Origin: Escherichia coli
Lineage (GTDB): Bacteria > Pseudomonadota > Gammaproteobacteria > Enterobacterales > Enterobacteriaceae
Direction: 5' to 3' (one strand)
Length of the DNA stretch: 64,000 nt
Assembly (NCBI RefSeq): GCF_030013595.1
Contig: NZ_CP122768.1
This document shows, piece after piece, positions 60,652 to 61,049 of the stretch. How positions within the stretch are numbered: the first letter of the stretch is position 1; every line of letters starts with the position of its first letter. Position numbers and translations under genes: made by a program. The notes below the pieces were generated by a model, which worked only from the letters and a program-made list of their open reading frames with translations, had not been told where the DNA came from and ran no database searches.

Positions 60652-60915
60652 TCAGCCACCTTTTTTCGCATCAACAAAACGCCCAAAACGCTGGGTAAAG
60701 CGTGCAACATTACCTTCTGAAGCGACAGTTCTCAGTTTACCTGTATAAAACGGATGCGACTTAGAAGAAACGTCAATTGTAACATATGGGTAAGTTACAC
60801 CATCCAGTTCAATTACCCGGTCAGTTTTGATCGTCGAACCGATCCTGAAGTACTCATCAATACTGGTATCGTGAAATACTACTGTACGGTATTCCGGATG
60901 GATATTCGGTTTCAC
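60652..60915 (-). CDS. ykgM: 50S ribosomal protein L31 type B (zinc-independent paralogue)
   Basis: 87 aa [33 protein letters not shown]...HPFYTGK; no CxxC zinc ribbon, as expected for the Zur-regulated paralogue. Confidence 0.85.
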
Positions 60916-61030
60916 AACAGTTTTCCCCCTTTAAGTGAAAATTCCGCATAAAGGTACATATTCAGACGGTCAGATTCAACTGTCTGTTCTTATAACCTCA
61001 CTCTCTTTCAGTATTACAATATGTTATATA

Positions 61031-61049
61031 ATTATAAACTGGACTTCCC
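61031..61049 (-). promoter_or_regulatory. Candidate Zur box upstream of ykgM
   Basis: AT-rich imperfect palindrome ATGTTATA-TAA-TTATAAAC, ~115-135 bp upstream of the ykgM start; resembles the Zur consensus half-sites TGTTATA / TATAACA. Confidence 0.4.

Follow-up and report, generated by a model that had tools for sequence, protein, structure and literature searches.

A solo gene for zinc-independent ribosomal protein L31 in the Ter/Ure island of Escherichia coli, without ykgO and without the canonical Zur operator

The switch from ribosomal protein L31 to its paralogue L31B is the textbook zinc-sparing response, and in E. coli it feeds back on the translation of rpmE. Bacillus subtilis YtiA is a C- L31 paralogue of the solo kind: chromosomal, Zur-regulated, and provided with a Zur box of its own. 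Neisseria RpmE2 is another, likewise solo, chromosomal and Zur-regulated from its own Zur box (PMC13343924). In E. coli, the Zur operators of ykgM, zinT, znuA/C and pliG have been validated (Gilston et al. 2014, PMC4219657), and Zn2-Zur represses K-12 L31p about 560-fold via its operator (PMC4219657). In ribosomes L31p substitutes for L31, and it acts through K2, H6 and E8 of its N-terminus to repress the translation of rpmE; the residues that touch 5S rRNA and on which this repression depends are M1, K2, H6 and E8 (PMC9825181). Cells that have only L31B are slower in cyclic growth, notably at lower temperature (PMC7363858).

The gene described here lies in a 64,000-nt stretch of E. coli DNA (the window). 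It resembles the core ykgM–ykgO pair of E. coli in that its protein is about 93% identical to YkgM, has no Cys, and begins with the same MKPNIHPE that includes K2, H6 and E8, and in that homologous promoter −35 and −10 elements precede it. It differs from the core pair in having only 81–82% nucleotide identity to it (dS about 1.7), in starting with GTG rather than ATG, in the absence of ykgO, in having no operator from the −10 element to the ribosome-binding site, and in its neighbors, hok/sok and traT, whereas the core gene lies beside ykgL/ykgR. Like the genes for YtiA and Neisseria RpmE2, it is a C- L31 gene that stands alone, with no L36 paralogue directly 3′; unlike them, it is of enterobacterial ykgMO descent and has no convincing Zur box. 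The gene itself is already known as a RefSeq annotation. What appears to be new is a bL31B gene separated from operon partner and operator alike: searches of the literature for the island copy of L31B, its solo state or the loss of its operator found no paper, and Z1151 turned up in the literature searched only as a PCR marker for OI-43.

The L31B gene and its missing partner

The gene and the sequences that follow it are arranged as listed here.

60652..60915, minus strand: ykgM-like gene for type B L31 (GTG start, 87 aa, TGA stop; from the ORF listing)
60518..60651, minus strand: spacer of 134 nt between ykgM and hok/sok
60155..60517, minus strand: hok/sok type I toxin–antitoxin module, filling the place expected for ykgO

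The first-pass annotation had read the ORF as an 87-aa L31 paralogue devoid of the zinc ribbon, and so it proves to be. The ORF is intact, there is not one Cys among the 87 residues, and the protein scores above the cut-offs of NCBIfam NF002462, ‘type B 50S ribosomal protein L31’ (121.6 bits; cut-off 86), TIGR00105 (67.4 bits; cut-off 38.35) and Pfam PF01197 (85.5 bits; cut-off 27). Alignment with RpmE shows the Cys positions of the zinc ribbon (CxxC…CxxC) occupied by other residues, and 65 of the 68 residues modeled for L31B in the E. coli ribosome structure 6i7v are identical in the island protein (E = 7e-41). The N-terminal MKPNIHPE is that of K-12 L31p, with M1, K2, H6 and E8 all kept; I19, R24 and V34, together with the C-terminal VDAKKGG, tell the island protein apart from the core protein. 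PGAP annotates the ORF as WP_000803992.1. The island ORF is an intact, horizontally acquired solo gene for a zinc-independent bL31B.

The same annotation had noticed no L36-like ORF downstream, and tblastn with YkgO and RpmJ as queries agrees: nowhere in the window was there a match better than E = 0.16, and none lay near ykgM. (The YkgO query was verified as 100% identical to the K-12 protein.) The explanation then offered, that ykgO was degraded, divergent or simply overlooked, fares less well. Alignment to K-12 ykgMO places the homology across the ykgM ORF only, and ends it at the stop codon, which reads TGAT in both. A degraded ykgO in the 134-nt spacer was considered and rejected: local alignments of the spacer to nine ykgO genes were no better than those of shuffled sequences (p = 0.3–0.97). 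The gene is cleanly absent, and no remnant of it is seen in the spacer. The ykgM cassette stops at its stop codon, and ykgO must have been left behind or cut off, and not have decayed in place. Nor is the locus the Zur-regulated ykgMO operon for which it had been taken, but a separate, xenologous copy, 81–82% identical in nucleotide sequence, in a mosaic island. In all 81 loci compared—K-12 plus 80 from species genomes, ranging from Escherichia to Vibrio and Pseudoalteromonas—ykgO comes right after ykgM; at the island copy hok/sok lies there instead.

The hok/sok module begins 134 nt past the stop codon of ykgM and appears complete. Its hok ORF (60210–60350) encodes 46 aa and matches PF01848 (HOK_GEF) at 25.7 bits (cut-off 22). 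It is overlapped by a sok-like antisense region at 60339–60497 that matches Rfam RF01794 at 50.5 bits (E = 1e-9), which is under the gathering score of 59. Plasmid hok loci match 60155–60517 at 73–88% nucleotide identity.

In the stretch 60518–60670 of the minus strand the spacer is unusually structured (MFE −56.9 kcal/mol, z = −3.8), with two hairpins directly after the ykgM stop codon. An intrinsic terminator at this position was considered and set aside; the terminator scan found none, and the hairpins have no U-tract. In the diverged island variant L088, both substitutions that fall within the stems (60646 and 60635, each C to T) preserve the pairing as G-U. No homologues of the spacer were found in E. 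coli genomes outside the island.

Both O157:H7 Z1766 (NZ_CP062736.1) and strain 7_56_38A (NZ_CP074811.1) carry core ykgO in addition to the island copy. Any ykgM at all was present in 5070 genomes, and the core ykgO region in 5057, which leaves room for at most ~13 genomes with a ykgM but no core ykgO region; in O111:H8 7-15 45A a ykgM was seen at a single place. The source of L36B in O157:H7, and to go by these counts in nearly every carrier, is core ykgMO elsewhere in the chromosome.

A plasmid-like mosaic in the Ter/Ure island

Further upstream lie the remnants of other elements, and a pair of similar stretches occurs elsewhere in the window.

61339..61467, plus strand: traT, truncated after its first 42 codons by an IS3-family remnant (annotated by PGAP as a pseudogene, ‘TraT, missing C-terminus’)
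61529–61870, plus strand: IS3-family transposase OrfA remnant, between the truncated traT and ureG
61947–62078, plus strand: remnant of an autotransporter C-terminal barrel, between the truncated traT and ureG
~28364–28441, plus strand, and 59310–59387, minus strand: near-identical stretches, incidental tblastn matches, encoding an IS1 InsA-like peptide

The locus is the tellurite/urease (Ter/Ure) genomic island of EHEC/STEC strains, of the OI-43/48 type, and ykgM lies in it between the traT remnant and hok/sok. RefSeq annotation of three carriers gives one and the same gene order: ureDABCEFG, the autotransporter remnant, the IS3-family transposase remnant and the traT remnant, followed by the type B L31 gene, Hok/Gef, a hypothetical gene, IS66 copies, and terW onward. 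Within the Ter/Ure island, the gene sits in a plasmid-like mosaic in which traT diverges from ykgM and hok/sok. The two InsA-like stretches point to a pair of oppositely oriented IS1 copies, one of them ~0.8 kb past hok. Two short ORFs in the intergenic region upstream of ykgM, of 45 aa (61032–61169) and 41 aa (61210–61335), were considered as genes and dismissed as chance ORFs; neither matched a protein family and PGAP annotates neither.

In STEC2018-553, which carries a variant of the island without ure genes, an intact, divergent traT stands upstream of ykgM, and from this it follows that 60916–61338 (423 nt) is the complete traT–ykgM intergenic region. Since traT is split here and intact in the ure-less variant, it may have been interrupted by insertion of the ure/dgk/eptA segment, IS3/IS600 remnants included. 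Strain CAU16175 also has a split traT, with a 233-aa traT CDS ~10 kb away, beyond the ure cluster (1379–2080 in locus L089; compare 766–1497 in the variant, L088).

The island copy occurs, at 99% identity or more, in 575 of 5426 complete E. coli genomes (roughly 590 copies in all), and in 572 records this level of identity extends over the surrounding 1.2 kb. Carriers include O157:H7, O111:H8, O121:H19, O145 and O103 strains and porcine ETEC/STEC strains; O157:H7 TR01 differs from the window by one base, in an A-run near 61299.

A setting of this kind invites the view that ykgM simply travels along as a passenger without a current role: a piece of a donor ykgMO operon caught between plasmid modules, poorly transcribed and translated, whose intactness reflects nothing but the youth of the island and its horizontal spread. 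The surroundings are indeed rich in remnants (the truncated traT, the IS3 and autotransporter remnants, the IS66 copies); identity among almost all copies is 99% or higher, which leaves little time for inactivating mutations; and rare stop-loss and frameshift variants were found (P0001, P0002). The loss of both operator and operon partner would also be consistent with decay of the unit. Against this, the junction coincides exactly with the stop codon and spares the whole ORF, and O157:H7, O121:H19, a porcine strain and STEC2018-553 all have WP_000803992.1 as the annotated protein. Further evidence on both sides comes from the start region and from the diverged variant, below.

Promoter, replaced operator and upstream boxes

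On the 5′ side of the gene the following features can be placed, the last two farther upstream.

60925..60929, minus strand: Shine-Dalgarno core GGGGG, 9 nt before the GTG, aligning with AGG/GAGG of relatives
60951..60979, minus strand: proximal promoter, with −35 TTGAAT (60979–60974), a 17-nt spacer, and −10 TACCTT (60956–60951)
60926..60947, minus strand: site of the canonical ykgM Zur operator (GTTATGTTATAACATAAC), replaced by GCGGAATTTTCACTTAAAGGGG in the alignment to seven relatives
60928–60954, minus strand: imperfect inverted repeat of 13 nt, CCTTTATGCGGAA / TTTCACTTAAAGG, occupying the place of the lost operator
61016..61037, minus strand: AT-rich palindrome, Zur-like, with one perfect half-site (TATAACA on the minus strand) and one degenerate half
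61147..61161, minus strand: second Zur-like box, TGTTATATTATCAGA, with two mismatches in 15 to TGTTATAWTATAACA

The proximal hexamers align with the conserved GTTGaa … TAYnnT of K-12, E. albertii, Kluyvera, Citrobacter and Salmonella, and by this comparison the island copy has kept the ancestral −35 and −10 elements of ykgM along with a good Shine-Dalgarno sequence. The promoter agrees with the consensus at only 7 of 12 positions, and the consensus scan did not report it. These weakened hexamers, and a GTG where all 11 relatives inspected have ATG, are points in favor of the passenger, and given both the island gene could be nearly silent.

The stretch from the −10 element to the ribosome-binding site is another matter. 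In nearly all of the 81 loci an operator of the GTTATGTTATAACATAAC type is found there, centered 19–36 nt before the start. A position weight matrix (PWM) built from 55 unique ykgM operators gives these training operators 21.6–36.9 bits, whereas the orthologous place in the island copy scores −16.7 bits or lower. By the alignment and the matrix, the canonical Zur operator is lost, exchanged for unrelated sequence of similar length, and no operator of the ykgM type stands between the −10 element and the ribosome-binding site of the island copy. Inspection of the replacing sequence by eye for CRP or Fur sites gave no convincing match. The 3′ arm of the inverted repeat that now occupies the place overlaps the Shine-Dalgarno region; the repeat could be a new protein site, or a hairpin that masks the Shine-Dalgarno sequence in transcripts started upstream.

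Two boxes farther upstream nevertheless resemble Zur sites. The first, about 114 nt upstream of the ykgM start codon, is the AT-rich palindrome which the first-pass annotation had put forward as a candidate Zur box, its half-sites on the plus strand being TGTTATA (61022–61028) and TATAAAC (61033–61039). The palindrome is real, but only one of its half-sites is perfect, and by the PWM the box scores 12.4 bits, below every validated operator (17–21 bits). It has three mismatches in 15 to the Zur core consensus, TGTTATAWTATAACA; by chance, 1.5 such sites are expected per window. The second box, which the first-pass annotation had missed, is the sole match in the window with two mismatches or fewer to TGTTATAWTATAACA (0.12 expected). 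It resembles the znuA/C operator, TGTTATAATATCACA, differing from the znu core at 2 of 15 positions, and yet by the PWM (61141–61162) it reaches only 6.3 bits. Like the validated E. coli operators, each box has one perfect TGTTATA half-site; unlike them, each has a degenerate second half, and neither overlaps the conserved proximal promoter. They may be relics, or weak Zur sites.

Such boxes are the basis for an alternative in which the island ykgM is still a member of the Zur regulon: Zn2-Zur, bound at 61016–61037, would repress a distal promoter whose −10 element is the TATAAT at 61036–61031, with the box at 61147–61161 perhaps assisting, and the gene would be induced by zinc starvation as the core copy is, with a weaker dynamic range. 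A Zur-sensitive distal promoter is conceivable because the box directly follows this perfect TATAAT hexamer on the minus strand. The half-site, ATATAACATATT, is identical to the right half of Kluyvera ykgM operators, and its position just 3′ of the hexamer repeats the geometry of real ykgM operators. The palindrome ranks second in the window by PWM, and its score is attained in only 0.8% of composition-matched shuffles of the traT–ykgM intergenic region (420 nt); two perfect TGTTATA half-sites in these ~420 nt have a probability of about 0.006 under local composition. At pliG, moreover, a single Zur dimer bound to a weak operator can bring about ~8-fold repression (PMC4219657). What tells against the alternative is, to begin with, the scores, which for both boxes are lower than those of all four validated E. 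coli operators by the same PWM (pliG 21.0, znuA/C 17.7 and zinT 17.0 bits; ykgM at least 21.6). An unrelated site at 57763 scores 12.6 bits, and scores at that level thus arise by chance in the window. The distal −35 element, as read from the sequence, matches at 3 of 6 positions only, and the conserved proximal promoter, being downstream of both boxes, would escape occlusion. Weighing these points, we regard continued control by Zur as rather unlikely.

Selection, origin and possible function

STEC2018-553, about 2–3% diverged, offers a view of how the locus changes. Its ykgM ORF differs from the window at a single position in 264 nt, and the change is synonymous; the traT–ykgM intergenic region has 10 changes in 423 nt, the spacer after ykgM 9 in 134 nt, and hok/sok 12 in 363 nt, 31 changes in 920 nt of flank in all. 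Were the ORF to change at the rate of its flanks, it would have ~9 changes (Poisson P about 0.001). The variant shows no change either in the promoter hexamers, in the Shine-Dalgarno sequence or over 93 nt upstream. Both observations go against a mere passenger, a view that we hold to be unlikely on balance. Against K-12, dN is 0.017 and omega about 0.01, and this ratio and the contrast between ORF and flanks are the signature of an ORF under purifying selection. Two cautions apply: most of the low dN/dS was built up in the donor, before capture, and the contrast, which comes from one island variant, could reflect mosaic recombination.

Who that donor was can be circumscribed. In a scan of 100,044 species genomes the nearest proteins were those of E. 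albertii and E. coli (91–92% aa identity), then that of Kluyvera (about 80%); other genera reached 81% amino-acid identity or less, and no donor closer than core Escherichia was found. The synonymous divergence from the core gene may be set beside that between E. coli and E. albertii ykgM, for which dS is 0.59. From the identities, the dS values and the comparison of genera, the donor would be an unsampled lineage near Escherichia, or else the paralogue is old. A plasmid ancestor with ykgM of the island type was sought by plasmid blastn and tblastn and abandoned as a candidate source: the matches were only F′ plasmids or mis-binned pieces of chromosome carrying the core gene, three records that bear the island, and chromids of other genera.

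Taking all this together, we moderately favor the reading that the island copy is a functional solo L31B gene, weakly expressed and largely independent of Zur. Its structural part is nearly certain; its regulatory part is drawn from comparison of sequences. In such a reading, the gene would be transcribed from the retained proximal promoter, free of the tight Zur repression to which core ykgM is subject. Expression would probably be low, on account of the weakened hexamers and the GTG start codon. With K2, H6 and E8 kept, the protein should substitute for L31 in ribosomes and, like K-12 L31p, repress the translation of rpmE. Carriers of the island would gain a basal supply of L31B whatever their zinc status, and L36B would come from the core operon only.

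One may go further and suppose that, in Ter/Ure carriers, an operator-less bL31B uncoupled from Zur is selectively maintained and is expressed regardless of zinc; we think this doubtful, though worth stating for what it would entail. Part of the ribosome pool would shift to the zinc-free form, translation of rpmE would be damped, and zinc would be spared before starvation is sensed. Published work on O157:H7 that relies on ykgM knockouts or qPCR would be confounded by one or more island copies besides the core gene. Apart from that supposition, studies of ykgM in O157:H7 by either method may have missed a 93%-identical protein encoded by such copies. A copy that has the promoter without the operator would amount to a natural experiment in which remodeling of the ribosome is uncoupled from Zur, in an island that is linked to the virulence and fitness of STEC. 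Should the gene be silent, it is a footnote to annotation only, and its import is modest unless there is real uncoupling from zinc.

The core locus has variations of its own. About 360 of the 5426 E. coli genomes have no match whatsoever to ykgM or ykgO, and in some E. coli lineages the 3′ end of ykgM has been replaced and no ykgO is annotated. Some core YkgM proteins carry a tandem duplication of 5 aa (VTYPYVTYPYV).
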